Assembly: GCA_021835845.1 (NCBI GenBank)
Contig: JAKBJU010000001.1
Coordinates: forward strand, 12,908 to 76,907
Length of the DNA stretch: 64,000 bases
Reading direction: 5' to 3'
Source: Pseudomonadota bacterium
Lineage (GTDB): Bacteria; Pseudomonadota; Gammaproteobacteria; Burkholderiales; JABEVD01
Position 1 is the stretch's first letter; every line of letters begins with the position of its first letter. Both the position numbers and the translations under genes were made by a program. This document shows, piece by piece, positions 8,821-23,096 of this stretch. The notes beneath the pieces were generated by a model, which saw nothing but the letters and a program-made list of their open reading frames with translations, was not told the origin of the DNA and did not search any database.

Positions 8821-9285
8821 TTGAAAAGAAAGCAGCTAGATCGTACTCTTTTAGATTGGATTAAATCAGAAGGAGGGCGTAACGCAATACCTGAGACTGC
8901 ATTGGATGATCATGTGGTTCTTGGTCGATTTAATGCTGGCATGCTAGCTATCCTAAAATGCGTTGATTTAGAGATTGTTACCTCCGTAGCAGTTTTGGAT
9001 AAAATGCTGTTCGATCATGGTATTAGCATTAATAAATTAGAGCGGTTACATAGCCTGATCTGCTCTCCCATAAAAGTCTATCAATCTGCGACACAATCAA
9101 CTTCTGTTGTAATAATGACAGTTGAACTTCACCGAGGAAAACCTATTCTGCTACCAATATGGTTAAATAAACCGGGGGCTACTGGAAAACCGCCTATGCA
9201 TTGGCTATCAAGTGGCTATACGAAGGATAATCCAAATTGGCAGTCAACTTGGGATTCTAAAGGTCTGTTGCTTTGGCAGAAATAA
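8821..9285 (+). CDS. Hypothetical protein in the AT-rich cargo pocket
   Basis: 154-aa ORF with a TTG start after AAGGGGG. Local GC is much lower than the rest of the island. No motif recognised with confidence. Confidence 0.45.
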   Translation: MKRKQLDRTLLDWIKSEGGRNAIPETALDDHVVLGRFNAGMLAILKCVDLEIVTSVAVLDKMLFDHGISINKLERLHSLICSPIKVYQSATQSTSVVIMTVELHRGKPILLPIWLNKPGATGKPPMHWLSSGYTKDNPNWQSTWDSKGLLLWQK

Positions 9286-9491
9286 AAAAGCCTCAGTGTG
9301 TGGATACCGAAGCTCTAATTGCTGAAGTATTTGTCACACCCCTAAGGCTCTTCAATCCTAGTCAAAAATTTCTTAGTTGTCAAAGTAATTTATACACAAC
9401 CAGTACGCCACCGCATACAATCTGTCTGTATCCATCTGATTATAACGGTAAATCTCCTGTAGTGTGGGGCGGCTTCCCGCCCCTGGCTGAT

Positions 9492-9884
9492 TTAAGCTGC
9501 TCTTTTCTTCTTCGAAGCGCTCGAAGCAGCTGCGACTGCGCGTTGAAGGTCTTGCTCGGCGAGGATGAACGGGTAAAGTTCTGACTTTTCACCTGCGGTC
9601 AGCAGCTCCAGAGTGTTCCGCACCTCTTCGCTGTCGCCGAGAATCGAAACAATCTGGTCATCGATCACGCGATTTTCGAAGTCGTCTGCATGATTCAGGA
9701 GCTTGTTCGCGAGGCGGCGGCATTCGGTCGGGGTGATATCTGATTGGAAACTCACCCCGGCTGTCCGGAGCCCAATCACCGAAACCAATGATCCTCTGTC
9801 ATTGTGCCAGCTGGAAAGGCTGACCTCGGATTCGTATCGGCGGCCCTTTTCCAGCGCGATTTCTCTGTTGTGAAAATCACTCAT
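9492..9884 (-). CDS. Hypothetical protein
   Basis: 130-aa ORF convergent with 8821-9285. Acidic with a K-rich tail. No recognised domain. Confidence 0.5.
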   Translation of the reverse strand: MSDFHNREIALEKGRRYESEVSLSSWHNDRGSLVSVIGLRTAGVSFQSDITPTECRRLANKLLNHADDFENRVIDDQIVSILGDSEEVRNTLELLTAGEKSELYPFILAEQDLQRAVAAASSASKKKRAA

Positions 9885-9927
9885 GATGTCTCCCTTCGTT
9901 GTTGAAAAAGTGTTTTAAAACAGTTTG

Positions 9928-10077
9928 TCATGCTCTCGCGAAACCATTAACTTTCAGGTCTGCGAGCTGCACCAGCCCCAGCACGATTTCGAAAACCGTT
10001 CCGGCGTCGTTGAGTGCCGGGCTCACGGTTCCGAGAGCCGCTACAGTCATGCTCAAAACGATCAATACGGTTTTCAT
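9928..10077 (-). CDS. Small exported or membrane peptide (49 aa)
   Basis: ATG 10077 preceded by GAGGAG. MKTVLIVLSMTVAALGTVSPALN looks like a signal peptide. Sits in an operon with 10089-10364. Confidence 0.35.
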   Translation of the reverse strand: MKTVLIVLSMTVAALGTVSPALNDAGTVFEIVLGLVQLADLKVNGFARA

Positions 10078-10088
10078 GTCTGGTCTCC

Positions 10089-10364
10089 TCAAGCGGCTTG
10101 GAATGCCGCGATTTGTTCGATTCTGGCGCTCCCCTGGCGCTGGCCGAAGAGTCGAATAACCCCTGCTGCCGCAATCGCTTTTGCCCCTTCCCACCCCCTG
10201 CGCTTCGCGCCGGTTTCCAGAGCTGCCAGATTGTGCGCTGTCGGTTTCACGTGAATCATAACTTGTTGATTTTGTGCGCTTTTACCTGCCTGTTGGTGAG
10301 CCTCGCGGGGGGCGCCCGAAGGGGGCGCGGTTTTGATGGTTTCCGGTTTGTTTCGAGTCGCCAT
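10089..10364 (-). CDS. Hypothetical protein, possible ribbon-helix-helix DNA binder
   Basis: 91 aa. GGAGG RBS 8 nt upstream of ATG 10364. VMIHVKPTAHNLAALETGAKRRG resembles an RHH strand-helix. Weak call. Confidence 0.45.
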   Translation of the reverse strand: MATRNKPETIKTAPPSGAPREAHQQAGKSAQNQQVMIHVKPTAHNLAALETGAKRRGWEGAKAIAAAGVIRLFGQRQGSARIEQIAAFQAA

Positions 10365-10832
10365 TTTTCGTCCTCCCTTTTCGTTTGCCTGCCTGTCGGA
10401 GCCGCCTCACCCTGATTTCCGGAAGGAGCGCGGGAGGTAAGCGAAAGCAAGGGGGGCATGACAGACGGAAAAAGCGAAAAACGGAATACCGGAGGCCGAA
10501 GGCCGAGGATATGCCGGATTTTCGCCCGGCTGGCGTGACGCCTTGCCATTGAGCGGGCGCGAGGGAAGGAAATAGGGTGGCTCCGAGAGGTAGGCCGAAA
10601 AGGGCCAAGGACGTGGGCGACTCGAAACGGTCTACCGGAAACACCGCGCTTGCGCGGGCGCTGCGAGGCGAAGCAACGGCAGCGCGAAGAGCCCGCCCGC
10701 TTGCGGGCGACGGCCTGGGGGGTTCCCCGCCCTCGGGCGGGGGTTGGTTTCACCAAAGGATACCTATGGTTAAGCGGCTTGCTGCTCCGCTAGTCTTCGT
10801 TCGGAAGCATGATCGTTATGAGCGGCAAGGGG

Positions 10833-11102
10833 TTAGGCCGGTCTGAATTTAAGCCGGAGAGCGACAGCGAGCCAGGCGACATTTGCGGAAATCCTGACCG
10901 ACGAAAAGACAATGGTGAGGGGCTGGTGAAGTGATGGATAGATATATCCAACTTCCCAAGCTCCCCAGAGCACATACCATGCCCATGCGATCCAGTTGAT
11001 GCCGCGAATTTCTCCATCTGCTCGAAGCTTGAAAAAGTTGGTCCAGGCGAAATATGCGCCGCCCGCTTCAAGCGTACTGTTAATCAAATCTGGTATGGTC
11101 AT
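10833..11102 (-). CDS. Small integral membrane protein
   Basis: 89 aa. Trp-rich hydrophobic segments. Immediately downstream of ardC. Confidence 0.45.
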   Translation of the reverse strand: MTIPDLINSTLEAGGAYFAWTNFFKLRADGEIRGINWIAWAWYVLWGAWEVGYIYPSLHQPLTIVFSSVRISANVAWLAVALRLKFRPA

Positions 11103-11152
11103 GGTGATACCCTTTCAAGAAAAAAAGGGCGGATTTCTCCGCCCGGTTTCCA

Positions 11153-12016
11153 TCATGCTGCGGCTTGCTGCTGCTCCTGAAATGCCATGATGTAGCCGTG
11201 CGCCTTGCTGGCCTGACTTGCTGCGGTGAAAATCGCCCGCTTGTCGTTCTTCAGTACCTTGAGCCACGAATCGATATAGCTTGCATGGTTGGGAATCTGC
11301 GAAGCGATAAACCCGGTTTCAGCATTGAGAAACGCGCTTCCAAGCTCCGCTACCAGTTCCTCGAATGCGTAAGCCTCGCTTCCGAATCTGCCGGAAAAGT
11401 CGCGGTTAAGGCGGTGCTTCGCTCCCGTCCAGTGGGTGAGTTCGTGGAGCGCCACGCTGTAGAAATCCTTGGCGCTGGCAAATCTGGCACGCTCCGGCAT
11501 GGTGATTTCGTCGGTCGAAGGACGATAAAAAGCCTTCTGTCCGGTCTCGTTGATCTTCGCGCCTGACGCCTTCAGGATCGCCTCGGCGGCCTCTACCTGC
11601 TCCCATTCGGTTCTGACGGTTGCGGCTGCTGGCCTCTCGATGCCGTCGATCTGGTCGAGGTTGAAAACCCAAAAAGGTGAGGCCATCGGGATTTCTTTCT
11701 CTTCTTCGGTTTCCTTGTCCAGGATTTCGAGCATCTTGAAATAAACGCAAAGCTCGCCTTTCTCGCCCTTCCTGACCTGTCCGCCAAGCTCTGCGGCTTG
11801 CTTGTAGGTCAACCATGCGTTGCTGCTGTAGCCGTTCGCTCTCGCTGCGCTCCAGAGAATCAGGGTGTTTATGCCGCGATAGGCTGCGCGGGTCTTATGG
11901 TTGATCGGCATGCCTCCTGCCGCGTCCTGCGTCCAGGTGATGCCCTCGCCCGTCGCGTTGGCCTCGATTGCGGCAATGATCGAATCGGTGATTTGCTGGT
12001 AGAGATCGGTTTTCAT
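11153..12016 (-). CDS. ardC: ArdC-like antirestriction protein (ssDNA-binding N-domain plus zincin metalloprotease)
   Basis: 287 aa. N-terminal DUF1738/ArdC pattern (YRGINTLILW, WLTYKQA..LGGQVRKGEKG) and C-terminal HELTHWTG zinc motif. Confidence 0.9.
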   Translation of the reverse strand: MKTDLYQQITDSIIAAIEANATGEGITWTQDAAGGMPINHKTRAAYRGINTLILWSAARANGYSSNAWLTYKQAAELGGQVRKGEKGELCVYFKMLEILDKETEEEKEIPMASPFWVFNLDQIDGIERPAAATVRTEWEQVEAAEAILKASGAKINETGQKAFYRPSTDEITMPERARFASAKDFYSVALHELTHWTGAKHRLNRDFSGRFGSEAYAFEELVAELGSAFLNAETGFIASQIPNHASYIDSWLKVLKNDKRAIFTAASQASKAHGYIMAFQEQQQAAA

Positions 12017-12124
12017 GGTCTAGCTCCTTGGTCGGTTAAAAGTGATGCTCTCGACCTGAAAGCTCTCTTCGCCTTCCCCTGTGGGGGACGGGAGGGGGAG
12101 ATAAAGACGTTTGCGGAGAATGAC

Positions 12125-12144
12125 AAAAACCGGGATTTTCCCGG
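12125..12144 (-). terminator. Rho-independent terminator-like hairpin upstream of ardC
   Basis: Minus strand reads CCGGG-aaaat-CCCGG followed by TTTTT. Separates the 12330-12629 gene from ardC. Confidence 0.6.
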
Positions 12145-12329
12145 CTTGCTTGTGATGCCCACGATCAGTTCCCCCTTCGCAAATCGACAGGGGGCTGATC
12201 CAGTGGGTATGCAATGACGGGAAGCTGGTGAGCTCGAAGCGGGTAAACGGCGTGATTTTGCTTTCTTGAGGCTGACCCCATGCGCGGCCCGAATGCCAGC
12301 CTTGCGCTGGCGTGATGGGCGCGGGAAGC

Positions 12330-12629
12330 CTAGTCGAAATCGATTTGAACCGCCCGGATCGAGCGTATGCGCTGGTCCGGGAAAGGGATGATTTCGGCTT
12401 GTTGAAGCTGTTGAAATTGCTGCAGCTGGTATTGGTTGCGGATTCCCGCCTTTTGCTGTTCCTCGACTTCGTGCCTGACAATAAAGAAGAGAGCGGCGGC
12501 CCTCATCGCGCCAAGCCATGCGAGAAGCGCGATGAAGCTCCATAAGCCGTGAGTTTTCGGCAAAATGTAGGCTATTGCGCCGGTCAGAATTGAAGCGGTT
12601 GCGACGACTTGAAGAAAGCGCGAAAACAT
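12330..12629 (-). CDS. Membrane protein, hypothetical
   Basis: 99 aa. Two hydrophobic helices then a Q-rich tail. Start overlaps the upstream stop (TGATG). Confidence 0.5.
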   Translation of the reverse strand: MFSRFLQVVATASILTGAIAYILPKTHGLWSFIALLAWLGAMRAAALFFIVRHEVEEQQKAGIRNQYQLQQFQQLQQAEIIPFPDQRIRSIRAVQIDFD

Positions 12630-12877
12630 CAGTCTAGCTCCTTGAATTTTTTCCAGAGAATGCAGGTTTTCTCGGTTGCCCAGTCCGCGAATCTCGAATT
12701 GAGCGCGTCGAGAAAGCTCCTACGCTGTTGCTGTTGTGCTGGAGCGGGGAGAGAAACCGTCCCGGTCCCGCCGGTTGCAAGCGCCTTGAGGTAGGCGCTC
12801 GCGGTCAAGCCTGCTGCGAGCGCCCGAGATTCGAAAGCCTGGGCCTCGTCGTCCGTGAAATCGATTGAGAGTTTCAT
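12629..12877 (-). CDS. Ribbon-helix-helix-like protein (MobC/CopG-like fold)
   Basis: 82 aa. MKLSIDFTDDEAQAFESRALAAGLTASAYLKALA fits strand-helix-helix. ATGA coupling with the upstream gene. Confidence 0.5.
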   Translation of the reverse strand: MKLSIDFTDDEAQAFESRALAAGLTASAYLKALATGGTGTVSLPAPAQQQQRRSFLDALNSRFADWATEKTCILWKKFKELD

Positions 12878-13647
12878 TGCGCCGCTCCGGGGTAGCTCAA
12901 TTCTTGCTGGGTGGTTTGCTGCTCCGCTGCCTTCGCCTTCAAGTAAGCCTGCATTGCAGCCGCTTTGTCTTCGGTGTTCTGCGCCTGCCCCTGCGCCTGC
13001 GCTTTCGATTGAGCGACAAGCTGATTGAGCGCTCCGTTCTCATCGATCAGCATTGCCGACATTTGCGCATTCTGGCTTGCAAGCGTCTGGAAGCCTTGGA
13101 CGTTGCCCGAAATGTTCGGGATTTGCTGTGCAAGTGCCGTGACGGCCTGCGACTTGTTTTGCAGGTCGGCGAGGTTCGCTTGAGTTGTTTTAAGCTGGTC
13201 GCTGTACACCTTGTTTCCGGCTGCGGCCTGCTGCGCGACATAGCCGTAGTATTGGTTGGGCGTCATGCCCAGCCGGGTCATCGTCGCAGCGTCCACGGAA
13301 ATGTTCTGCGTGACATTGTTCGCTGCGGCTTTCAGGTTGAGCAAGTCCTGGGCCATCGCGGCGTAACCCTGCACCCCGCCCATGCCTGCGCCCGCCTTCG
13401 CCATTGCGCCAAATTGCTGCACGTTTGCCGCCGCCCCCTGAAGGTTCTGCACCTGCGCCTGATACTGCTGCAGCTGAGTAATGTACTGCTGCAACTGGGT
13501 CGCCTGGATGCCTGCCTGCTGCGCGACGGATGCGACAAGCTCCGCATTGTTGGCAAGCTGGGTAATTTCGGTCGCCCCGCCCGTGACCCCACCCCCGGCG
13601 AATGCGGGAGCGGAAACGAGAAGAAGAAGAGAAAGGATTTTTTGCAT
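12874..13647 (-). CDS. Secreted Q-rich coiled-coil protein, TrbJ/VirB5-like
   Basis: 257 aa. Signal peptide MQKILSLLLLVSAPAFA, then ITQLANNAELVASVAQQAGIQATQLQQYITQLQQYQAQVQNL, which resembles the TrbJ/VirB5 N-terminal pattern. Family not verified. Confidence 0.5.
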   Translation of the reverse strand: MQKILSLLLLVSAPAFAGGGVTGGATEITQLANNAELVASVAQQAGIQATQLQQYITQLQQYQAQVQNLQGAAANVQQFGAMAKAGAGMGGVQGYAAMAQDLLNLKAAANNVTQNISVDAATMTRLGMTPNQYYGYVAQQAAAGNKVYSDQLKTTQANLADLQNKSQAVTALAQQIPNISGNVQGFQTLASQNAQMSAMLIDENGALNQLVAQSKAQAQGQAQNTEDKAAAMQAYLKAKAAEQQTTQQELSYPGAAQ

Positions 13648-13702
13648 GATGACTCCTTTTGGAAGGGTGATGGGGACAGTCTAAACCGCCCCCGGAAATC
13701 CA

Positions 13703-14659
13703 TTATTTGCCGGGCTTGCCGGGCATTTGCAGCTGCATCACGGTATTGGTCGGGTCGGGCGTGAGCGATTGCGAGAGTCCTCCGAAAAGTCGTCCGGTGA
13801 TTTGCGTCGCGTTCAAAATCAGGCCGAGGATCGCGAGGCTCAAGATCGACACGAAAATCATGAGGACCGTTGTCGGCATTGTCGATGAGCCGGTCTGGCC
13901 TGCGATTACGCCGATTTCGGTCACGATGTCGAGACAAAGCATGATGAGCACGCCGAGAACCGGTTTGTAAAAAATTGCGCCGACGAAAAAACCGATCCAG
14001 TTGCCCATCATCGACCGCAACTTGCCGATGATCGAGAGCGCAAGAATGATCGGGCCGAAGCAGAGGGCCAAATATATGACCACGTTTGCGATGAGCAGAC
14101 TGGCCCAGCATGCGGCCATAGCGCCGACGAGAATTGCGACTGCTGACATCATCACGACAAATGAACTAATCGAGTCAACAGCGGTAAGCAAGCTGCTTCC
14201 GAGGATCGCGAAGATAGAAGACGCATTCGAAGCGTTCGAAGCGTTCTGCGCGATGGACTGCGAAGACGGGAAAATCGAAGTCGAAATGGCTTTGACTGCG
14301 GGCGAAAAGTTCGCAATGACGAGATGTCCAAGTCCTTCCGACGTTTGCCCTCCGGTCGCGGCTTTAACGAGGTCGTCTGCGACAGACATAGCCGGATCGA
14401 CCGCGAGGGTTTGCCAGTGAAGAATGATTGCAGCAATCGCAATCGACGGGATGACGGCTTCGAAAAGCCGCTTCATCGCGCCTTTTCCGTCGTTTGAAAG
14501 CAAGATGACAAGGGCCGCGACAATCTCGAAGATGACCGCCGCGACAAAGACTTTTTCGGTCGTGTCCGAGGTTGCGAAGTTCATTGCAAAGGCTTTACCG
14601 TGCGTGTCAACGGTCGAGAAAACTTGATCGAGGACGGTGAAATCGAGGTACATGGTCAT
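13703..14659 (-). CDS. Polytopic membrane protein, TrbL/VirB6-like
   Basis: 318 aa from ATG 14659 (GAAGGAG RBS, ATGA overlap with the upstream gene). Five to six TM segments and a hydrophilic tail. Adjacent to the VirB5-like gene. Family not verified. Confidence 0.5.
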   Translation of the reverse strand: MTMYLDFTVLDQVFSTVDTHGKAFAMNFATSDTTEKVFVAAVIFEIVAALVILLSNDGKGAMKRLFEAVIPSIAIAAIILHWQTLAVDPAMSVADDLVKAATGGQTSEGLGHLVIANFSPAVKAISTSIFPSSQSIAQNASNASNASSIFAILGSSLLTAVDSISSFVVMMSAVAILVGAMAACWASLLIANVVIYLALCFGPIILALSIIGKLRSMMGNWIGFFVGAIFYKPVLGVLIMLCLDIVTEIGVIAGQTGSSTMPTTVLMIFVSILSLAILGLILNATQITGRLFGGLSQSLTPDPTNTVMQLQMPGKPGK

Positions 14660-14973
14660 GCTCCTTCGGTCGAGATGTGGACGCGGTGGTGATGCGCGAC
14701 ATGGTGCATGTGCGCCGCTGCATGCTGCGGTTTTGCTGGCGGCTGGGGGTGAACCGGGCCGTGGGTCAGCATTGCAAGTTCCATGAAGATGCCGAAAACG
14801 CCGACTGCTGCGAAGAGCTTGAGGTAGGGCCGGAAAATTATGTAGATGACGCCAGCGCCTGCGCAAATTGCGAGCGAGAGGGTGAAGCCTGCCCATGGGG
14901 CGCAGCCGAAGAAGAGGACCAAAAGTGCGGCAATCTTGACGTAAGTCGTTTTCTTGAATTCAGGCATTTTCAT
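14656..14973 (-). CDS. Small membrane protein with a His-rich C-terminal tail
   Basis: 105 aa. Three hydrophobic segments. Tail reads PQHAAAHMHHVAHHHRVH. Confidence 0.5.
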   Translation of the reverse strand: MKMPEFKKTTYVKIAALLVLFFGCAPWAGFTLSLAICAGAGVIYIIFRPYLKLFAAVGVFGIFMELAMLTHGPVHPQPPAKPQHAAAHMHHVAHHHRVHISTEGA

Positions 14974-15243
14974 GTTGTTTCTCCATTTTCGACCCGGCTT
15001 CCCGCCGTATGAATCGCGTTTTGTTTCGGCAAGGGAGGAAAGGCAAGAAATTCGACCGAAGCCGCAGCCCGAAGGGACCGGGTGACGGCGAACCCGAAGG
15101 GGGCGAAGCCTTACTTGCTTTTCCGAGCGCCGAAACGATCTTTGCGATTCGGGGCGGGATGCAGGGCGAAGGAGAATTGAAAATCCAAATTCAAAGACGC
15201 CCTGGTGCCGCTTGATTCATCTTCCCATGCGCCTGGGATACCA

Positions 15244-15471
15244 CTATTCGTGGGTGTCGAGCACGCGGAAAGCGTCTTCTGTGAATTCGGCTAAAGCTGC
15301 ATCGCCTCGGGTCAGCGCGTGAATCTGGATTGCTGCCAGCACGGCCTCAAGGTCAAGCCCGGCATCTTGTCGCAAAACCCGGATTGCAGAGTGCAGCGGA
15401 TTTGCGGGAACCCCAAGCTCACGAAGTCGTGCATGTCCGAGGTCTTGAGATGAAGTCAGAGTTGTTTCCAT
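15244..15471 (-). CDS. Hypothetical protein
   Basis: 75-aa ORF with a weak AGGA RBS. No recognised domain. Confidence 0.4.
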   Translation of the reverse strand: METTLTSSQDLGHARLRELGVPANPLHSAIRVLRQDAGLDLEAVLAAIQIHALTRGDAALAEFTEDAFRVLDTHE

Positions 15472-15480
15472 GATTTTTCC

Positions 15481-15507
15481 TTTCGAAAACCCCGCCCGAG
15501 GGCGGGG
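15481..15507 (-). terminator. Rho-independent terminator after the lipoprotein gene
   Basis: Minus strand reads CCCCGCC-ctcg-GGCGGGG followed by TTTTCG, 13 nt after the stop at 15520. Confidence 0.65.
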
Positions 15508-15519
15508 GGTGGGTGGGTT

Positions 15520-16326
15520 TCAGGGTAAAACGATGGTGTCGCCGACGCGGGGGGCCGTCGGCGTGACAACCGAGCCAGTGCCGCCCGCAAAGCGCTCGTA
15601 ATCGACCCGATAGCCGTCCGTCACGTCGCGGGTGACGTTGTGACACGTCGTGGTGGGCGTGTGCTGGATGTGGTCGCCGGTGAGCGCCCCGACAATAGCG
15701 CCGAGGGCTGCGGCTGCGACTCGTCCGTTTCCGTTGCCGATTTGAGACCCGGCCATGGCTCCGGCTGCGCCGCCCAGCCCGGCCCCCAGGTACTGGGGAT
15801 TTGTCGAGTTCTGCTGCTCGCAAACCTGCTGACTGACCTGGTGCGTGATGGGCACGACATCGATGACGCGGGCTGCATGCTGCCGAGCCTCGTTTGCGTT
15901 CGCGATCACGTCGGGCGGAAGCTGCTCGTCCTGCCGTGCCTCATGACGTGGACGGTGAGCTTCGCGGTGCTTGTGCTCCTTCGGCTTTTCCTCTGCCGGT
16001 GCTGCTGCCGGGGCGGAAGCTGCGGCCTGCCCTGCCCTGGCTTGCTGCAAAAGCTCGGAAAACTGCTCTTGCGTGAGCGTTACCTGGCCGGGACCCGATG
16101 CGACGGGGGCGGAGGCAGGAGCCGAAGCCGGGACCACGGCGGAAGCTGCAACGGGAGCCGAAACAGGCGCGGGAGCCGCCGGGACCACGGCGGAAGCCGG
16201 GGAAAGCGTGAGCGCCGAAGCCGGAGTCTTGGCCGGGGCGGTGGAGCCGCCGCCGAAGATTCCGGGCATGTCGCAACCGGCGAGGCCGATAGTCGCGAGA
16301 GCGACGATGAGAGCGGTTTTCTTCAT
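15520..16326 (-). CDS. Lipoprotein with Ala/Pro-rich linker and glycine-zipper (17-kDa antigen-like) domain
   Basis: 268 aa from ATG 16326. Lipobox LAGC. GAGLGGAAGAMAGSQIGNGNGRVAAAALGAIVGALTG glycine zipper. Confidence 0.7.
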   Translation of the reverse strand: MKKTALIVALATIGLAGCDMPGIFGGGSTAPAKTPASALTLSPASAVVPAAPAPVSAPVAASAVVPASAPASAPVASGPGQVTLTQEQFSELLQQARAGQAAASAPAAAPAEEKPKEHKHREAHRPRHEARQDEQLPPDVIANANEARQHAARVIDVVPITHQVSQQVCEQQNSTNPQYLGAGLGGAAGAMAGSQIGNGNGRVAAAALGAIVGALTGDHIQHTPTTTCHNVTRDVTDGYRVDYERFAGGTGSVVTPTAPRVGDTIVLP

Positions 16327-16327
16327 G

Positions 16328-16834
16328 TTACTGTCCTTTCGTGGTTTGAGGGATGATGAGGATCGCGCAAGCCGGGTCGCCAATCAGGTGTTGCGAGAGC
16401 TGCGCCCGCGCTTGAGCCAGCGGTTGAATGCATTGGCTTTTGACCGTAAAGCTCTTGTTGACGAGTGGCGCGGTGATGAGCGCCTGGCCGCCTGCTTGTT
16501 GCTTGATGAAGACCGGAGAAAAAGCTGTCTGCTGGTCCGTCGCTATGATCTCGTGGCAGCCGTATTTCTGCGCTGCCGCTTTGATCGCCGCATTCGTCGC
16601 TTCGCGGCTCGTCATGGTGCAGCCGAGGAGCACGGTTTCATGTGCCTGCGCGGGCTTCGCGCCTGCGGCGAGTGCGGCGGGAAAAGTGACCTCGACCGTC
16701 TTTCCGTCGCGGTTCGGTATGATGATCACGGGTGCGACGGCTGTCGCTTCTGTGCCGCCGGTCTGCGGGCTCTGCGCGCAACCTGCGACGATTCCCGCAA
16801 GTGCGAGTACGGCGATGGGTGTGAATTGTTTCAT
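16328..16834 (-). CDS. Lipoprotein, hypothetical
   Basis: 168 aa from ATG 16834 (AAGGAG RBS). Lipobox IVAGC. Confidence 0.65.
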   Translation of the reverse strand: MKQFTPIAVLALAGIVAGCAQSPQTGGTEATAVAPVIIIPNRDGKTVEVTFPAALAAGAKPAQAHETVLLGCTMTSREATNAAIKAAAQKYGCHEIIATDQQTAFSPVFIKQQAGGQALITAPLVNKSFTVKSQCIQPLAQARAQLSQHLIGDPACAILIIPQTTKGQ

Positions 16835-16887
16835 GTCTGCTCCTTTTTCGATGTGACAATCCAGTGTCTCACTGGTCCGAAAAACGA

Positions 16888-17661
16888 CTATTCGCGGTCG
16901 TCGGCGAAAAACCAGACGCCCCGGAAGCATTCGCGGTTTCGAATGCGGCGGTCAGCGAAGACTTCGCGAAGCGCTTCCGACTTGTGAACGATGCATTCGC
17001 CGTGGACCGAATCGTATAAACCGTTTACAGTGTTTTGGCCGTCGTAATAATTGCCAGCGGGCGAGTAGTCGGAAAGGCTCCAGGGCATTACTGCTGCGCC
17101 GAAACGCGGATTTTTCGGGTCGCGCACGTAAAGGCTGGGACAAACCCCGCGCTTCTCCCGGTCGCGTCCGTCGCTGAAATCGAAGAGCGACGGGATGAAA
17201 CAGATCGGAGAAACCGAGAAAGTGTTTTCTGTCGCAACCGAATCAGCGGCCACAATCTTTCCGGGGTGAGCGCCGTCCGGAAAAAACTCCATTGGTTCTA
17301 TATGGATTGCGAGTCGAGCCGTGGGCGGTGGCGGCGTCAAGCTGCGCGGCTGAGCTTGTGCCTGAATCCGCAACTCCGTAGCTTGATGCTGGTCGGCGAA
17401 GAGTCCGCCGGTCGCCGGTGTTGCGGCTGCTGGCTGAGCGGAAGCGGGAGCGTCGGGGTCTTGAAGGCCAAAAAAGAAGTAGTAGCCAAGTTTCTTTTCC
17501 CAGTGCGGTGCGGGCCCGAAGAAAATTCCGGTGGTGCTGTTGCCCTGGTCGCTGGTCGTCGCGCTCTTCGAAGAGAAAAGCGAGGATGCGCCGAAGGCGA
17601 TGACCGCGACGGCAATTCCGAGCGCTGCGAAACTCAGAACGGTTTGTGTTTTCTTGTCCAT
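16888..17661 (-). CDS. Exported or membrane-anchored hypothetical protein
   Basis: 257 aa from ATG 17661. N-terminal signal anchor (VLSFAALGIAVAVIAFGASSLF). C-terminal Cys-containing domain of unknown family. Confidence 0.55.
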   Translation of the reverse strand: MDKKTQTVLSFAALGIAVAVIAFGASSLFSSKSATTSDQGNSTTGIFFGPAPHWEKKLGYYFFFGLQDPDAPASAQPAAATPATGGLFADQHQATELRIQAQAQPRSLTPPPPTARLAIHIEPMEFFPDGAHPGKIVAADSVATENTFSVSPICFIPSLFDFSDGRDREKRGVCPSLYVRDPKNPRFGAAVMPWSLSDYSPAGNYYDGQNTVNGLYDSVHGECIVHKSEALREVFADRRIRNRECFRGVWFFADDRE

Positions 17662-17766
17662 GTCCTTTTCCTTTCCGGGGGCAGCGCCCCCGCTGTTGAG
17701 AGATGGGGGGCAGCGCCCCCCCCGTCTTGCCGCGACGCTCAATGCGTCCCGGACTCCGGGAAACTG

Positions 17767-18051
17767 TCAGCGTCCAATGCCTTTAATCGCTCCGAAAACA
17801 ACTTCTGCAAGCCATTTCGCGAAGCGAAAGAGCCACTTCGCGGGCAAAATCAGGCCGTCAAGGCCGCCCTGCCATGCGCGGTGCCACTCGCCATGACGGA
17901 TGCCGGAAACCAGAAAGCCGCCGACGAATGTGAGGCCCGAGGCCATTGCGAGGATTGCGAAGCCCTGGGGCGTGAAGGCAATCTGGATCGCGCCGAGGAA
18001 TACGCGGATTGCGATGATGAAGCCGAAAAGCATCAAGCCGAGGCGAATCAT
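17767..18051 (-). CDS. Small membrane protein
   Basis: 94 aa from ATG 18051. ATGA overlap with the upstream 64-aa gene. Three hydrophobic segments. Confidence 0.45.
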   Translation of the reverse strand: MIRLGLMLFGFIIAIRVFLGAIQIAFTPQGFAILAMASGLTFVGGFLVSGIRHGEWHRAWQGGLDGLILPAKWLFRFAKWLAEVVFGAIKGIGR

Positions 18052-18242
18052 TTGAGCTGCCCTCCCGTTTTTTCGATTGCTGATTTGAGGAATTCGAGCG
18101 CATGGTCTGCCGAAATCGGCAGGGTTCCGCCGGTTTTCGTCCAGATGAAGATCATCAAATAGATGCCACCGATTCCGCAGGAAAGCGCGAACACGATGCG
18201 CCAGATGAAGGGCATGGAAGATTGTTGAGTTTGAGATGCCAT
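18048..18242 (-). CDS. Small membrane protein
   Basis: 64 aa. One TM (FIWRIVFALSCGIGGIYLMIFIW). First gene after the Replic_Relax-like gene. Confidence 0.45.
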   Translation of the reverse strand: MASQTQQSSMPFIWRIVFALSCGIGGIYLMIFIWTKTGGTLPISADHALEFLKSAIEKTGGQLK

Positions 18243-18245
18243 TTG

Positions 18246-19019
18246 TTAAGCTCCTTTCTTCTGTGCGAATTTCGAATAAGAGAAAAAGGCGAATCGAGCG
18301 CGATGAGAATCCGTCACCTTGACGTTTTCGCCTTCGAACCGGATGGTTTCGACCCGCGCAAAAGCTCGCTCTACAAGCTTTTCGAGGCCGTCGGGGCAAA
18401 CGTAAGCGACAAAAGCGTAGCGCCCTGCTTTAATCGATTTGAGATGCGCGAGCAGCACAGATTCATACCGCCGGGGGGTCTTGATGGTCCTCTCGATCTC
18501 GATTGCGACTCGGTCGCCCTTCGGGCTTGTGGCGATGAAATCGGGGATTTTTTCCGAGTCCTTGCCTTTCCCTTTCGCTGCCGTTCGCTCCCTGGGCGAT
18601 TCCTGCATTTTCTGCAATCGCTCGGGCACGAATGCGGTCCAGCCTGCGGCTTCGGCCTTGATCCGCATGCGCTGGCCGTCCAGTTTGTGAGCGAGAAATG
18701 CCGGGGACGTGCGCCCGAGTTCGTGGAAAGGCATGTCCCATTTGTCGATGAGCGCGAGGCCATGCGGGGTGATGCCGTAGATTTTCGATTTCCGGCCCGC
18801 GTTCTCTATTTCTTCCGACTTGAGCGCACCGTCGCGCTCCAGGCCGCCGACTGTGGATTGTGCGGCCCGTCGGCTGCATTGCAGCAGCAATGCGGCGATT
18901 TCAACGGTCGAGAAGACTTCGCCAGATGCGAGGAAATCAAGCAGTATGCGGCGTTTCGCTTCTGCGCGAGCCTGCTTTTCAGCGTAAGTCATGGCCGGGA
19001 GTCGTTCTGTTTTTTCCAT
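18246..19019 (-). CDS. wHTH plus PD-(D/E)xK-like protein, replication-relaxation (Replic_Relax)-like
   Basis: 257 aa from ATG 19019 (GGAG 9 nt upstream). The ORF could extend to 19040. N-terminal wHTH (ILLDFLASGEVFSTVEIAALL...ERDGAL), H-containing middle (FLAHKLDGQ), PDFIATSPKGDRVAIEIERT core. Confidence 0.6.
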   Translation of the reverse strand: MEKTERLPAMTYAEKQARAEAKRRILLDFLASGEVFSTVEIAALLLQCSRRAAQSTVGGLERDGALKSEEIENAGRKSKIYGITPHGLALIDKWDMPFHELGRTSPAFLAHKLDGQRMRIKAEAAGWTAFVPERLQKMQESPRERTAAKGKGKDSEKIPDFIATSPKGDRVAIEIERTIKTPRRYESVLLAHLKSIKAGRYAFVAYVCPDGLEKLVERAFARVETIRFEGENVKVTDSHRARFAFFSYSKFAQKKGA

Positions 19020-19091
19020 TTCTTCATCTCCAAAAAACACAATTCAATTTTCCCATGCGTTCGAAAAACCATTGTTTGCCGAGCCGCCTTT

Positions 19092-19165
19092 CCCGCGAAG
19101 CGGGTTAGTCCGGCGCGTGAGCGCCTGGGGGTCTCGCGAAGCGAGTTCGGGGCTCGCGAAGCGAG
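19092..19165 (+). repeat. Cluster of four mini-hairpins (three GCGAAGC-core, one GTGA-loop)
   Basis: cccGCGAAGCggg 19092-19104, GGCGCgtgaGCGCC 19112-19125, ctcGCGAAGCgag 19133-19145 and again at 19153-19165. Confidence 0.8.
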
Positions 19166-19212
19166 TAAATTGATGGTCCGGCGAAATGGGGCGGGTCTCC
19201 CGCCCCTGGTGG

Positions 19213-21024
19213 TCAATCGAAGCTGATTGTCTCGGGTTGGTCGAGGTCGAGGCCGTCGGTCTCGACTATGCGCGAAGTCGCGGGCGGCAAGTCGAACGGT
19301 GCTTTCTCGGTGCCCGAATCGAGCGCGACGGACTCGGAAGCGCTCTTCAAGCTCGCCCCTTCAACCTCGCGAATTGCGATTGCTTCTGGCGACTTCGCGA
19401 CTCTCAGCGGTCGAATCGAAACGAATTTCGGAAGTCCGCTTCCATACAGAACCGCTACCGATGCGGGCAGATTCAACAGCATGTTTTCATCAATGAAATA
19501 GCGCTCGGCTTGTCGAATCGACCTGCGAGCATCGACGGTTTCAGAGAGAGCCAGATTCCGCTCAACCGTCCGGCTCTCGTCGTCCACGAGGATCTTCCCG
19601 GACATGCTTGCAAGCCATTCGGCTGTGACCGGGGATTTAACCTGGTAGCAGAGCTTGACGCGGCAATTCTCAACGACAGCATCAACGACAGCATCAGGGT
19701 TGAGATCCTTGGTGCAGTCTTTCAAGTCGCCCAAGCTCTGGTGAGCAAGGATCAGGTGGACACCTTTGTCGCGAGCGGCCCCCAGTCCTTCAAGCGCTGG
19801 GCGGGAAAGGTGGTATTTCACTTCGTCAAGGACAATACAGATTTTGCGAAGTTCTCCGGCCATGCGGTCGCGCCGTTCGGCAAGCTGCAACAAGCGCACA
19901 AGCAAGATGCGCTGCGCGGTCTTCACGATGTCGTTTCGCATCGATCCGACGATGTAGACACATCCGCCGTTTTCGATAACTTCGGCGAGCGATACGCCCC
20001 CAGCGGTCGCGTTGATCGACGGTGTTTCGGCCATTTCGCGCAGCTTGCCGTAGAACTTCTCGGCTTCGCCTACCTGGTCTTTTCGCGCCTCGAAAACCTC
20101 AGCGATGGTTAGATTTTCAGCGGCCATTTGCCGGGCGGTCGCAAGTGCTTCACGACGATCTGCAATGCCGTAGAAGTCGCTGGCGTCGCCTTTCTCGATC
20201 AAGCTGAACCCGGCTTGAAACAACTCGAAAGCTTCATCAGCCGTTGCGCCTTCGAATGGGTTAAACTGCGCCCCGTTCGGGCGGTTGAGGTTGATGTAGT
20301 AATACGGCTTGCCGGTTCGCTGTGCTGCGGCATGCATGACCGATGGAGCCCACTCGTCGTTTTTCGGGTCGCAGAAAAAAACTGCTTCTCCGCGCTCAAG
20401 GAATTGAGACGCCATGACGCCCAGGCTCACGCCTTTACCCGCTCCGGTCGTGCCGACCACCTGAACGTGAGGCGCGGAAGTGCCGCCGCCGAATTCGATG
20501 TAGATAGGTTTTTTCTTCTCGTCCAGGCCGAGAAAAACGCCCTTGCTCTTATCAAGAAATTTCACCGGATCGAACGCGGCGGCGGAATCAGGAAGGTGCT
20601 TTTCGATCTCGCGAACGTCGGTCTTTCTGTTCCGCTCGCGCTCACTCGTAACCGTAGCCTTGCCTTTGAGCTTGTCGATTGCTTGGACGCCATCGCGCAG
20701 AAGAAAGATAGCGCCCGCGATTCCCGCTGCTGCGGAAATAATGAAAATGCCTATATCCAGCCAGCCGGGAAACAAAGTCGGAACGGTCCCGTCATCCCGA
20801 GGATAAAAAGTTACTTTCGAGAGCGTTGGGATAACAAAAAGGATTGCGAGCGCTGCCCATGCTGGCAGCGAAAACAGAGAGAAAAGCCGGGATAAAAAAC
20901 CTTCTTTGTTCTGCGCTTTTCGGTTATGCGAGAGGATTAAAAAGCCGAAACCAAAACCGAAAAAGCGGAGAGCGTGGAATGCCAAAAGCAGGCAGCCGAG
21001 CACGTAGAAATTCAGAACTTGCAT
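19213..21024 (-). CDS. Type IV secretion coupling protein (TraD/TraG/VirD4 family)
   Basis: 603 aa from ATG 21024 (AGGAGG RBS). N-terminal TM helices, Walker A VVGTTGAGKG, Walker B CIVLDEV, AHQSLGDLKD. The upstream part of the 668-aa ORF is rejected. Confidence 0.85.
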   Translation of the reverse strand: MQVLNFYVLGCLLLAFHALRFFGFGFGFLILSHNRKAQNKEGFLSRLFSLFSLPAWAALAILFVIPTLSKVTFYPRDDGTVPTLFPGWLDIGIFIISAAAGIAGAIFLLRDGVQAIDKLKGKATVTSERERNRKTDVREIEKHLPDSAAAFDPVKFLDKSKGVFLGLDEKKKPIYIEFGGGTSAPHVQVVGTTGAGKGVSLGVMASQFLERGEAVFFCDPKNDEWAPSVMHAAAQRTGKPYYYINLNRPNGAQFNPFEGATADEAFELFQAGFSLIEKGDASDFYGIADRREALATARQMAAENLTIAEVFEARKDQVGEAEKFYGKLREMAETPSINATAGGVSLAEVIENGGCVYIVGSMRNDIVKTAQRILLVRLLQLAERRDRMAGELRKICIVLDEVKYHLSRPALEGLGAARDKGVHLILAHQSLGDLKDCTKDLNPDAVVDAVVENCRVKLCYQVKSPVTAEWLASMSGKILVDDESRTVERNLALSETVDARRSIRQAERYFIDENMLLNLPASVAVLYGSGLPKFVSIRPLRVAKSPEAIAIREVEGASLKSASESVALDSGTEKAPFDLPPATSRIVETDGLDLDQPETISFD

Positions 21025-21905
21025 TGCTTCCTCCTGAAAATGAAATTGCTTCTCTAGGATCGCATGGGAAAGAAATACCACTAAATTGAGCGGTAAGCAT
21101 GGGTTAAAGCGCACCTTCGATTCCGTAGATGCGCTCGAAATCGTGTGGCTTGGCTGTGACGGCAAGGCGCAGCCGCGCAGCCCGAAGGGCGAAGGCAAGA
21201 CGGACTCATCGTCGCGCAAGTCGCGGTGATTTTTCGCGACTGAAGGGGGACCGGCGAAGCCGGGGCAAGACGCAGACCGAAGGTCGTCGCGTCGAGCCTC
21301 CGAGGATCAGCGAAGCGGTCCGAGGATCGGGGGGAGCCATGAGTCCCGAAGGGACCGAAGCCAGCCAGCGTCGAGTAAGGACGGCTTCATCGTCCGCACC
21401 GAGACCTGGATGGGCATGGGGGGCGAAGCCCCGGCGACCCGAGCGCGAAGCGCCAAGGGTCCAAGGTGCACTCTCCGAGCCTCGCTTTTTTGCGAGCGCA
21501 GCGAACAAAAAAGAAGAGAAGAGAGTGCTCCGCAGGACCCGCAGCCCTCCGGGGTCTTTGAGCGAAGCGAAAAAGACTCTGGAGGGGCGGGGTCGAGCGG
21601 TGGAAGGACCGGCGAAGCCGGGACTGGAAGCGCTCGACCCCGCCCGTCCAGCGGACGGGTCGGGTCGCCCGCTTTTGACGTGCCCCTGGGACTGCGACAG
21701 CAGGCCAGGAAGAGCCGCCGCGTCCAGCGGCGAAGCGATTCCGGCAGGGGATGCCTTTGACTTTGCTTGTGTTTTTGACTTTCCCAAAGTCAAGCCCGAA
21801 ACACTTAAGCGCATCATGAATATCAGAGTGCGCTAATGGTCGAAGCTGAAATCACACATGAAATGTATCGATTTCGGTGAGACGAAGAAGCCCCGCGAGA
21901 AGCCC

Positions 21906-21953
21906 CCACGAGAAGCCCCATAGTCCCGGCGCTTCTTCCGGGGCTTCTCGTGG
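21906..21953. repeat. 14-bp inverted repeat (CCACGAGAAGCCCC / GGGGCTTCTCGTGG) with a 20-nt spacer
   Basis: Read directly. Preceded by two more direct copies of GA(A/G)AAGCCCC at 21884-21906. Confidence 0.8.
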
Positions 21954-21976
21954 AGCTACTCGACACGAAAAACGCC

Positions 21977-22004
21977 AAAAAGAAAGCCCGGAAAAATCCG
22001 GGCT
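21977..22004 (-). terminator. Rho-independent terminator of the 22032-22223 gene
   Basis: Minus strand reads AGCCCGG-attttt-CCGGGCT followed by TTCTTTTT, 28 nt after the stop. Confidence 0.7.
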
Positions 22005-22031
22005 TAGAGGCGGGGAGAGTGCGGGGAAAAT

Positions 22032-22223
22032 TTAGGCGGGGCGGCTGGGATTTTCGCGAGCGATTTCAGCGAAAGCTGCGAGTAAAACATCGTCGGGGAG
22101 ATGCAGGATTTTTGCTTTTTGAGCGAGAGCGAAAATCGATTCTTTCCGAGCTTCGTCTTTCTGCGCTTGCGCGATTTGCTTTTCGAGATCGTCGCGTTTT
22201 TTCAGAAGAGTTTCGAGCTTCAT
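22032..22223 (-). CDS. Small coiled-coil protein, RSF1010 MobC / Ti TraD-like architecture
   Basis: 63 aa with AAAGGAAAG RBS. KKRDDLEKQIAQAQKDEARKESIFALAQKAKILHLPDDVLLAAFAEI parallels the coiled-coil plus LxAAxxxxL layout of RSF1010 MobC. Weak call. Confidence 0.4.
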   Translation of the reverse strand: MKLETLLKKRDDLEKQIAQAQKDEARKESIFALAQKAKILHLPDDVLLAAFAEIARENPSRPA

Positions 22224-22256
22224 GGTTCTTTCCTTTCGTCGTGAAAATTGAAAAAA

Positions 22257-22535
22257 TCAGCGGGCGTTTTTCCAGCCGCTGGCTTCAGCCGCATGAAAAT
22301 CCTGGATCGATTTCGCGGTGGGTGAGAGGTAAGCTCCGAGCAGCATTCCAGCCCCGAAAATCGATGCGACGATCAGCACGCGGTTAAAGATGACCAGCGC
22401 CTTGAAAAGCCGAAGCCGATTCCTCATCCTGCGGAGAGTGGCCGCTGAAATCGGCTTGCCGTCGGCGTCGAGATGAGGGAAAAGCTCTTCATGGAGAAAA
22501 GACGATGTGCCTTTTCGAAAGTAACGTTCATGCAT
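22257..22535 (-). CDS. Membrane protein, hypothetical
   Basis: 92-aa ORF with one TM (ALVIFNRVLIVASIFGAGMLLGAYL). Overlaps the upstream gene by 8 nt. Confidence 0.4.
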   Translation of the reverse strand: MHERYFRKGTSSFLHEELFPHLDADGKPISAATLRRMRNRLRLFKALVIFNRVLIVASIFGAGMLLGAYLSPTAKSIQDFHAAEASGWKNAR

Positions 22536-22752
22536 TGCGTGGCTCCTTTCCGTCGATGATGCGTTCTTGAAAAATTCGGGAAATCATGTCGCGCTGCTTC
22601 TCCGAAAGATGAATTCCGGTGTCGGGGTCTTCGCCGTATTTCTCAAGCCGCTGCGCCTGGTCGGCGATGTAGGATTTCTCCCATGCGCTCAGCTTGTCCG
22701 TCTGAGCTGAGAGCGTGCGGATTTTGTCGAAAATTGAAACTGGTTCGGTCAT
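22528..22752 (-). CDS. Hypothetical protein
   Basis: 74 aa from ATG 22752 (GGAG upstream). Helical and acidic. Confidence 0.4.
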   Translation of the reverse strand: MTEPVSIFDKIRTLSAQTDKLSAWEKSYIADQAQRLEKYGEDPDTGIHLSEKQRDMISRIFQERIIDGKEPRNA

Positions 22753-22894
22753 GATGTGGCTCCGGTGGTTGAACATAGAATCATTCTCGGGTAAATTTTC
22801 CAAACCACTAAATTGAAACTTTTCTGGTTGATGCGATGGGCTCCGTGCCAACCAAACTTTCAACTCATGAGCCTAAAAATTGGAGGGAAAAAAC

Positions 22895-23092
22895 ATGCGT
22901 TTAGTCTTGGGGATTCTGCTTCCGTGGCTTCAGTTTTTCACTATCGGTCGTCCCATCGCGGGAATAATATGCCTGATTCTTCAACTCACGCTCATCGGCT
23001 GGATCCCTGCCGCGATTTGGTCCATCTACGCCCTGAGCCAGTACAAGACAGACAAGAAAATTGAAAAGGCATTGGGTCAAGCAAAAGCCTGA
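22895..23092 (+). CDS. Small two-TM membrane protein
   Basis: 65 aa from ATG 22895 with GGAGGG 8 nt upstream. LIGWIPAAIWSIYAL motif. One of only four plus-strand genes in the island (with int, 8821-9285 and 25440-26132). Confidence 0.5.
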   Translation: MRLVLGILLPWLQFFTIGRPIAGIICLILQLTLIGWIPAAIWSIYALSQYKTDKKIEKALGQAKA

Positions 23093-23096
23093 TTTT

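Follow-up and report, generated by a model that had tools for sequence, protein, structure and literature searches.

A strand-asymmetric array of GAA-loop hairpins at the putative transfer origin of a MOBC-type integrative island

What is the role of the short hairpins that crowd the intergenic DNA of a mobile element in a Pseudomonadota bacterium (Burkholderiales; contig JAKBJU010000001.1)? The 64-kb stretch analyzed here, which we call the window, contains an 18.6-kb integrative mobilisable island, and between the genes of this island palindromes with a central GAA on the plus strand recur at least 16 times. We propose that the array is a local variant of a conserved, strand-coded single-stranded DNA (ssDNA) folding domain of MOBC-type transfer origins, accompanied by dispersed copies, and that it acts in cis in the processing of conjugative DNA; we give this explanation about an even chance of being right. 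The proposal turns an odd motif array into an identified functional region of the island, its putative origin of transfer (oriT), directly upstream of the genes mobB and mobC.

The array is real, strand-asymmetric and restricted to the intergenic DNA of the island, as a preliminary description of the window had stated. We read the window over 10300-21800 and enumerated all perfect palindromes with a 3-nt centre across its 64 kb. The palindromes of the preliminary description were all found, at the same coordinates or at most 1 nt off, and some stems proved 1 bp longer (21180-21190, GCCCgaaGGGC; 21343-21355, GTCCCgaaGGGAC). By a curated gene list, the intergenic DNA of the island between 10365 and 21949 amounts to 2,481 nt, and 44.7 kb of host DNA inside the window served as the comparison sample. 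The plus-strand counts of GAA versus TTC loops are these:

Island intergenic DNA (2,481 nt): 17 vs 2 with stems of at least 3 bp, 12 vs 1 with at least 4 bp, 7 vs 1 with at least 5 bp.
Island coding DNA: 5 vs 4 with stems of at least 3 bp, 4 vs 1 with at least 4 bp, 1 vs 0 with at least 5 bp.
Host DNA (44.7 kb): 10 vs 19 with stems of at least 3 bp, 3 vs 6 with at least 4 bp, 1 vs 0 with at least 5 bp.

Host and coding DNA are thus unbiased. The gap DNA is moderately purine-rich on the plus strand (G 0.327, A 0.211), and we considered chance or base composition as the source of the GAA excess. This was ruled out because shuffles that retain dinucleotides do not reproduce it: 500 shuffled sets of the intergenic segments gave 1.3 +/- 1.1 GAA hairpins with stems of at least 3 bp and a maximum of 8, and none reached 17. 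Counted as pentamers in the same DNA, CGAAG occurs 26 times and CTTCG 4 times. The earlier statement that no palindrome of this class has a TTC loop is essentially correct, since the two intergenic TTC-loop palindromes, GGGTTCCCC at 10720 and TTGGTttcACCAA at 10744, fall outside the C-GAA-G class. The apexes comprise ten GC-GAA-GC and six CC-GAA-GG, together with GCGAAAGC at 10441 and GGCGCgtgaGCGCC at 19112, on the plus strand throughout. The hairpins are distributed as follows:

10441-10448, plus strand: GCGAAAGC, a GNNA-type mini-hairpin sequence in the 10365-10832 intercistronic gap (sequence reading).
10494-10504, plus strand: GGCCgaaGGCC hairpin (sequence reading, palindrome enumeration).
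10668-10674, plus strand: GCgaaGC, a minimal mini-hairpin (sequence reading).
15068-15110, plus strand: three GAA hairpins, CCCgaaGGG twice and GGCgaaGCC, in the 14974-15252 gap (palindrome enumeration).
19092-19165, plus strand: CCCGCgaaGCGGG, the GTGA-loop hairpin GGCGCgtgaGCGCC and two copies of CTCGCgaaGCGAG (tandem 20-nt unit, 19133-19165), in the gap from the mobB stop to the mobC start.
21180-21621, plus strand: main cluster of eight GAA hairpins (21180, 21251, 21275, 21343, 21420, 21443, 21562 and 21609) within the putative oriT region.
21584-21645, predicted on both strands: long hairpin GGGGCGGGGTCGAGCG / CGCTCGACCCCGCCC around the mini-hairpin 21609-21621.
21716-21732, plus strand: CGCCGCgtccaGCGGCG, whose minus-strand reading is a TGGAC-loop hairpin, as in the CloDF13 oriT region and most of the relatives described below.

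No GAA hairpin is found among the terminator-like sites, that is, G+C hairpins followed by a T run. Two such sites lie on the minus strand, one at 12130-12144, after the gene at 12330-12629, and one at 21984-22005, which comes just before the oriT region in the sense direction and overlaps a doubtful plus-strand open reading frame (ORF) at 21950-22387. Another gap (17663-17766) holds twin hairpins, CGGGGGCagcGCCCCCG / GGGGGGCagcGCCCCCC, at 17676-17692 and 17705-17721; they are 29 nt apart and have an AGC loop, outside the GAA class.

The position of the main cluster gives the array its context, which depends on three features:

21028-21949: putative oriT region upstream of mobB, recognized by synteny; both strands fold (z-scores -5.1 and -4.2).
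19213-21027, minus strand: mobB, a MobB-like type IV coupling protein of TraD/TraG type (Pfam T4SS-DNA_transf, TraG-D_C and TrwB_AAD_bind).
18246-19040, minus strand: mobC, a probable MobC-family replication-relaxation protein of the MOBC (PD-(D/E)XK) relaxase type (NCBIfam NF041423, MobC_subf, E 8.7e-53, 179.1 bits, below the curated cut-off of 200; Pfam Replic_Relax weak).

The region 21028-21949 is non-coding and lies directly upstream of mobB, which is followed by mobC. The gene order oriT-mobB-mobC is that of CloDF13, HPI-ECOR31 and pMET1/pCRY (PMC2262945), and the cloned segment of ICEKp1 that separates virB11 from mobB confers mobilisation (PMC6761156). Because mobB and mobC lie downstream in this published order, the main cluster at 21180-21621, to judge from synteny, occupies the oriT position of a CloDF13-type module.

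Is the domain conserved in related elements? Scans with the coupling protein yielded 12 genome loci (Gallionellaceae, Sideroxydans, Thiothrix, Hydrogenophilales and others) and 20 metagenome loci, and all of these relatives carry 0.6-1.3 kb of hairpin-packed non-coding DNA upstream of mobB. An alignment of seven sequences gives a multi-branch fold with long-range helices, in which 74 of the 169 predicted pairs are compensatory and the conserved unpaired blocks include GGCTCCCCCC. We built a covariance model, R1, of a 135-nt core from seven betaproteobacterial islands; the core consists of a five-pair apex hairpin (GGGGC-TTY-GCCCC), a three-way junction with two C-TGGG-G hairpins, an invariant GGCGGCTCCCCCC and a 17-bp hairpin. 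R1 matches 19 loci (14 distinct) at E <= 5e-7 and also matches plasmids of Pectobacterium (pPA21A), Enterobacter, Pantoea, Vibrio and Klebsiella. Across the 18 non-identical matches with E <= 1e-5, standard pairs fill 92.6% of the cells, vs 63.7% after shuffling and at most 48.6% with slid partners; 36 of the 43 pairs have changes on both sides, and the covariation score is 0.671 vs 0.164. Conservation of the stems in homologous islands, by which the preliminary description proposed to judge its own claim, is therefore borne out, with compensatory changes keeping the stems. A megablast search with 10000-22000 for near-identical DNA in plasmids was empty.

The window belongs, with the relatives L013 and L014, to a divergent subgroup whose members share the blocks GGGGCTTCGCCCCCCA and (C)ATGGCTCCCCCC and align over the core. 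Only the blocks GGGGCTTCGCCCCCCA and GGCTCCCCCC are common to the window and the R1 domain. The hairpin GGGGCgaaGCCCC at 21420-21432 is homologous to the first R1-domain helix of the relatives, CCGGCgaaGCCGG of the main cluster is identical in L014, and CCGGCTTCGCCGG is the same in the window and L014. At one position of the three-sequence MAFFT alignment, as we read it, the stems differ: GACC-TTC-GGTC in the window, GTGC-TGTAC-GCAC in L014 and GCGC-TGGAC-GCGC in L013; the loops on the opposite strand are G-N-A and G-NNN-A. L013 carries four CCCGC/GCGGG hairpins after the mobB stop (2790-2900), with loops TGC, TGT, TGGC and TTGC, where the window has three GAA hairpins. Because these stand at the mobB-mobC junction, the small clusters too are, on this comparison, a family trait.

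These comparisons bear on whether the array is a private family of palindromes, similar to repetitive extragenic palindromic (REP) elements, that spread by local duplication with little or no function and owes its bias to purine-rich gaps or to concerted evolution. We consider this highly improbable. The tandem 20-nt units at 19133-19165, the 26-nt repeat at 21248 and 21606, the row of four near-identical hairpins in L013 and the uniform GAA loops of the window all speak for local duplication, and REP elements and the bacterial interspersed mosaic elements (BIMEs) are likewise short, G+C-rich, locally repeated palindromes in the intercistronic gaps of operons. Yet the excess is not reproduced by the shuffles, the stems covary at homologous positions over distant taxa, and the loop asymmetry recurs in beta- and gammaproteobacterial elements. 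Furthermore, neither a conserved REP head sequence nor, among the island ORFs scanned, a RAYT-like domain was found, and the palindromes do not cluster in the 44.7 kb of host DNA but are tied to the mobile element and its oriT. The suggestion that the array is private to this island is accordingly replaced by one in which it is the local form of an oriT-mobB-mobC hairpin domain of MOBC-type elements, CloDF13 and pCRY-like plasmids included.

Does the domain act as DNA or as RNA? The alignment cells comprise 526 Watson-Crick pairs, 18 G·T, 10 A·C and 35 others, and in the 18 elements one-sided changes of the G·U type are nearly absent while double changes are abundant. Structured RNAs carry several-fold more G·U pairs. 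The consensus fold of the antisense alignment (-193.5 kcal/mol) is on a par with that of the sense alignment (-189.0 kcal/mol), with equal covariation terms. A survey of loops on stems of at least 5 bp found no GNRA or UNCG tetraloop on either strand. The domain and mobB share a strand in the betaproteobacterial islands, a 5.5-kb Klebsiella plasmid (R1 core in L038, 5105-5240) and CloDF13; in plasmids of Pectobacterium, Enterobacter, Vibrio and Pantoea the two are on opposite strands (R1 core in L033, 11076-11210; L034, 3076-3210; L035, 3262-3395; L036, 3298-3431). Since the orientation is not tied to mobB, a general role as mobB leader is excluded. Palindromes of 4-6 bp and long-range helices are not explicable by cruciforms in duplex DNA, so the relevant state would be a free single strand, which at an oriT would arise in transfer or replacement synthesis. 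Watson-Crick pairing, equal folding of the strands and gene-independent orientation thus agree with the original view that the signal acts in single-stranded DNA. Folding both strands with DNA parameters, a check that the preliminary description had proposed, confirmed that both fold and did not tell the functional strand apart: over a 671-nt region the two values are -181.9 and -161.4, a gap mostly mirrored in shuffles, and the GAA and TTC versions of the hairpins are isoenergetic under nearest-neighbor DNA and RNA parameters alike. A wobble test by simple extension of imperfect hairpins gave 3 vs 4, too few cases, and is superseded by the alignment-based counts.

The same observations can be set against two readings in terms of RNA. 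First, the hairpins could be elements of a minus-strand polycistronic mRNA, with C-UUC-G apexes, serving as intercistronic stabilizers, processing sites, attenuators or the mobB 5' leader. Every cluster does lie between co-oriented genes, the predicted RNA hairpins (-4 to -8 kcal/mol) could block 3' exonucleases as REP elements do, and in the betaproteobacterial islands the domain is in the mobB sense. We nevertheless hold this to be distinctly unlikely, as four plasmid lineages have the domain antisense to mobB, G·U pairs make up about 3% or less, the antisense strand folds equally, GNRA and UNCG loops are absent, RNA energy rules do not favor UUC over GAA, and before the region the minus strand has the terminator-like hairpin at 21984-22005. 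Second, a structured noncoding RNA (ncRNA), transcribed independently from either strand, could regulate transfer in the manner of FinP or the STAXI motif. Such an RNA would be in keeping with the size, covariation and multiple branches of the structure and with its conserved unpaired blocks, GGCTCCCCCC among them, and the neighboring topoisomerase, ArdC and integrase genes recall the gene context of STAXI (RF01728), whose repeated structured unit is found close to topoisomerase, anti-restriction and integrase genes and whose authors also weighed an ssDNA role (PMC2864571). STAXI is, however, a tandem pseudoknot, and its UUCG tetraloops were to its authors a sign of RNA, whereas here we find triloops and TRGG loops, no RNA-type stable tetraloops, nearly no G·U pairs in an almost purely Watson-Crick structure, and a strand-symmetric fold. 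At gathering and permissive thresholds, Rfam (STAXI included) gave no match to the domain in the window, eight loci or pPA21A: nothing but tRNAs passes, and nothing credible appears at E <= 5 in 10000-26300. Moreover, no sigma-70-like promoter was found on either strand of 18900-22500, which lends no support either to an ncRNA, a reading that we judge very unlikely, or to the ssDNA-promoter role raised in the preliminary description.

If the domain is a single-stranded DNA structure, is it strand-coded? On the R1-sense strand, with stems of at least 5 bp, the loop TGGG occurs 40 times and its complement CCCA 0 times, TAGG 25 vs CCTA 0, TGGAC 16 vs GTCCA 0, TTC 39 vs GAA 6, TGC 55 vs GCA 15, and TAC 19 vs GTA 5. 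Among the 251 hairpins in the oriT regions of 22 non-redundant elements, 148 have T as the first base of the loop and 167 are closed by a C-G pair. Read on the other strand, the variable loops become G-N-A, G-NN-A and G-NNN-A, the sheared G·A bracket of DNA mini-hairpins. The loop asymmetry, as far as these sequences indicate, is family-wide, in beta- and gammaproteobacterial elements alike, and GAA is one state of a broader code. In the lineage of the window, nearly all loops have become TTC (GAA on the plus strand), and one TGGAC hairpin is kept. GAA itself is therefore not the conserved feature, contrary to the first impression from the window, since the relatives mostly carry TGGG, TAGG, TGGAC or TGC on the gene-sense strand.

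Which strand exists as ssDNA? We lean towards the plus (GAA) strand, and think this somewhat more probable than the reverse. The coding strand of ArdC is the TNC-loop strand in the window, in pPA21A and in an Enterobacter plasmid, so that the GNA strand would template ArdC on entry; the concept of leading genes oriented for entry is established (PMC13478746). Third codon positions show a small excess of G over C and T over A on the plus strand. The identification of the plus strand with the transferred strand (T-strand), assumed in the preliminary description, is by these lines (ArdC orientation, the G...A bracket and the small GT skew) weakly indicated.

Several points weigh against the proposed explanation or against this choice of strand. 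R1 finds no match in the window, L013 or L014 at E <= 1, and because the window is unscored by R1 its homology is argued from the two shared blocks and the alignment with L013 and L014. As the model energies are equal, the argument from GAA stability comes from the literature alone. The GC/AT skew at third positions is weak and uneven from gene to gene, and the argument from ArdC orientation draws on two independent plasmid types only. TGGG and TAGG, the most conserved loops of the relatives, are CCCA and CCTA on the GNA strand, which correspond to no known stable DNA loop; TRGG loops agree equally well with recognition of the other strand by its sequence. The rule of a closing C followed by T is broader than the GNA rule and could mark the minus strand, for example through CTN primase initiation triplets. 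Since the genes flanking the small clusters are co-oriented, mRNA and DNA roles are inseparable for these copies. Finally, the transfer of the island and the moving strand are here predicted from genes and sequence. In connection with the triplets, CTG, the DnaG CTG/CTN triplet that we considered, occurs in about half of the loops that begin with T. A Chi-like reading of GCTGG in the loops was set aside because Chi needs no covarying stems.

What is known of GAA-loop hairpins as DNA? The melting temperature of the oligonucleotides d(GCGAAGC) and d(GCGNNAGC) is about 76 °C, and they withstand 7 M urea; GCGNAGC and GCGNNAGC mini-hairpins resist the P1 and S1 nucleases, unlike hairpins with TTC or TTTT loops, and bind poorly to SSB, the protein that binds single-stranded DNA (PMC13037366). 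Phages G4, St-1 and alpha3 have them at their complementary-strand origins, and in RSF1010 one forms the apex (CCGAAGG) of ssiA, the RepB' site (PMC13037366). The hyperstability of GNA-loop mini-hairpins and their presence at ssDNA priming sites, on which the preliminary description drew, are thus documented. By the Hirao definition (G-N-A or G-NN-A loop, C-G closing pair, G+C stem) the hairpins of the window are mini-hairpins. They share with the priming origins an identical core sequence, a strand-dependent meaning, a RepB'-type primase gene and ssDNA-prone DNA. They differ in that phage and RSF1010 origins have one or two hairpins per defined origin, whereas the window has at least 16 on one strand over 11 kb with no conserved priming start context, and in that the relatives use other loops at the same positions.

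These precedents invite the reading that the hairpins are RepB'-type single-strand initiation (ssi) sites, at which the primase of the island would recognize plus-strand GAA hairpins and prime the complementary strand as at RSF1010 ssiA and ssiB. A RepB'-family primase is encoded by the same island; the 40-nt ssiA sequence, with its CCGAAGG apex, was verified in 149 IncQ-type records; stem pairing in ssiA is essential according to Miao 1993 as cited in PMC8567376; and the presence of many sites on the same strand would be in keeping with priming of a transferred strand. RepB', however, touches the 5' tail and the first base pair of ssiA rather than the apex, and starts at T32 of a GTG (PMC8567376). 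The functional ssiA unit is 40 nt long, with a specific 5' tail, the hairpin and a GTG start 4-6 nt beyond (PMC8567376), and by inspection the 16 hairpins of the window share neither tail nor start triplet. In addition, ssiA and ssiB are a single inverted pair on opposite strands within oriV, here replaced by at least 16 copies on one strand. By tblastn, L001 and L014 alone have a detectable RepB' homolog; in the complete pPA21A (L040), and in loci that include about 9-10 kb of flank on the upstream side, the domain is present and RepB' was not detected. Better candidates for primase sites are the 36-nt nested-hairpin repeats that flank the primase gene (23097-23169 and 24097-24169). We therefore regard priming by RepB' as unlikely, and as a general role of the array it lacks support: the ssiA precedent is true in itself, but the hairpins lack conserved ssiA-like flanks and occupy one strand, and relatives without RepB' keep them.

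Another known parallel is offered by the ssDNA promoters and priming signals in the leading regions of plasmids, Frpo and the ssi sites of F and ColIb-P9, which are likewise strand-specific folded ssDNA of conjugative DNA, act after entry and are accompanied by genes oriented for one template strand. Frpo is a single long imperfect hairpin that mimics -35 and -10 boxes, whereas 18900-22500 contains no such boxes, and the window has short perfect hairpins and a multi-branch domain.

How might a strand-coded folding domain work at a transfer origin? We propose that the strand unwound in transfer, or in a replacement synthesis of rolling-circle type, would collapse into short G+C-rich hairpins. 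On the plus strand nearly all apexes would be C-GAA-G, a hyperstable mini-hairpin with a sheared G·A pair that should resist nucleases and bind SSB poorly. The array could thereby hold defined parts of the single strand in a folded, SSB-free state, and these parts may serve as landmarks for handling by the relaxosome or coupling protein, for termination or for priming of the complementary strand. The small clusters in three intercistronic gaps would be dispersed copies of the same type on the same strand, supplying extra folded or priming points. For the exact job of the domain, the candidates would be a landmark, resistant to SSB and nucleases, for handling of the strand, for termination or for priming.

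MOBC is the least understood class of relaxases. Its members CloDF13 MobC and pAD1 TraX are restriction-endonuclease-like and have shown no covalent intermediate with DNA, and recruitment, protection and recircularisation of the strand are still to be explained (PMC12857230); published accounts of CloDF13-type oriTs describe inverted repeats only (PMC2262945). A bolder possibility, to which we assign a low probability, is that MOBC relaxases depend on a conserved folded ssDNA domain beside the nick site, represented by the R1 core and in this island by a GAA-loop derivative of it. Such a domain would bring the strand to MobB, protect a free end and/or self-prime or direct priming in the recipient, with the strand-specific loops (GNA / CTRGG) as a recognition code. 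If a covarying, strand-coded folded domain does exist at MOBC oriTs, the question of strand handling becomes testable by loop-flip and stem-swap mutants. To our knowledge, neither such a covarying domain nor the loop asymmetry has been described for CloDF13-type oriTs. The domain is common to environmental Gallionellaceae islands and to plasmids near the enterobacterial pCRY/pMET1/ICEKp1 group, which is among the closest described relatives, and the sequence-structure model is offered for finding MOBC oriTs, which have been poorly annotated so far.

Can a nick site or a protein-binding site be recognized in the oriT region? The motif GGGTGGTCA of the CloDF13 nick region is common to CloDF13 and pPA21A and sits in the large inverted repeat of pPA21A. 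It is absent from the oriT region of the window (21028-21949), and its only island match is TGGTGGTCA at 19207-19215, the number of matches being that expected by chance. At 19188-19215, GGGGCGGGtctCCCGCCCC is followed by CTGGTGGTCA at the mobB stop codon, with one mismatch to GGGTGGTCA, and a similar hairpin followed by CTGG lies at 9466-9486; the window holds about as many copies of the motif as chance would give. The repeats TTGACTTT / AAAGTCAA, in direct and inverted orientation, border the hairpin region on its distal side (21755-21795). AGTCAAA(GG/AC) repeats occupy the equivalent site in L001, L004, L006 and L009, and in L013 they are three tandem 11-mers. These repeats may be a binding site of the relaxase or of an accessory protein; the relaxase TraX of pAD1 binds direct repeats distant from nic (PMC12857230). 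In comparison, the oriTs of CloDF13, pCRY/pMET1, HPI-ECOR31 and ICEKp1 resemble that of the window in their position directly upstream of mobB-mobC and their wealth of inverted repeats. The window differs from CloDF13-type oriTs in its loops (nearly all TTC/GAA), its lack of an R1 score and the absence of GGGTGGTCA from the oriT region. Of the hairpins of the CloDF13 oriT region, three with TGGAC and three with TGGG loops on the mob-sense strand, the window keeps one TGGAC hairpin (21716-21732) and has no TGGG loop.

Finally, the element that carries the array can be delimited. The att sites are marked by a direct repeat of 61 nt (90%) that derives from the tRNA-Cys 3' part and lies at 7634-7694 and 26242-26302; it bounds the 18.6-kb element, so that the island extends over about 7.69-26.25 kb within tRNA-Cys, with its integrase end distal to the intact tRNA. 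The host DNA on either side includes nifS/nifB/nifA-type genes. The minus strand encodes nearly all genes of the island, and besides mobB and mobC they include the following, identified by domain search:

7743-8747: tyrosine integrase, at one island end.
11153-12016, minus strand: ArdC anti-restriction gene.
12874-13647, minus strand: TrbJ-like protein.
13703-14896, minus strand: TrbL/VirB6 (ORF; start probably 14660).
23188-24075, minus strand: RepB'-type primase (Pfam PF16793, RepB_primase, E 3.5e-18).

The coupling protein is 49% identical to the type IV coupling protein of pPA21A-type enterobacterial plasmids (30-45 kb; MOB-suite type MOBC), in which mobC comes after it. Domain searches over 8800-26200 recognized no VirB4, VirB8-11 or pilin among the island genes, and because VirB4 and VirB8-11 were not found the island is probably integrative and mobilisable rather than self-transmissible. 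The same interval holds lipoproteins besides the coupling protein and the TrbJ-like and TrbL/VirB6-like genes. The repeats at 23097-23169 and 24097-24169, on either side of the primase gene, are two pairs of tandem 36-37-nt units (72-83% alike); each of the four copies, all in direct orientation, is a nested hairpin, GGGCGAGG...CCTCGCCC around GGCGGC-GATAACCCTAT-GCCGCC, and they may be the primase's own sites or those of a replication protein. Related islands adjoin tmRNA or tRNA genes (L014, 15758-15883; L001, 52-124; L003, 8733-8820; L005, 7006-7269), and, judging by these neighbors, the island family integrates at several small-RNA genes.

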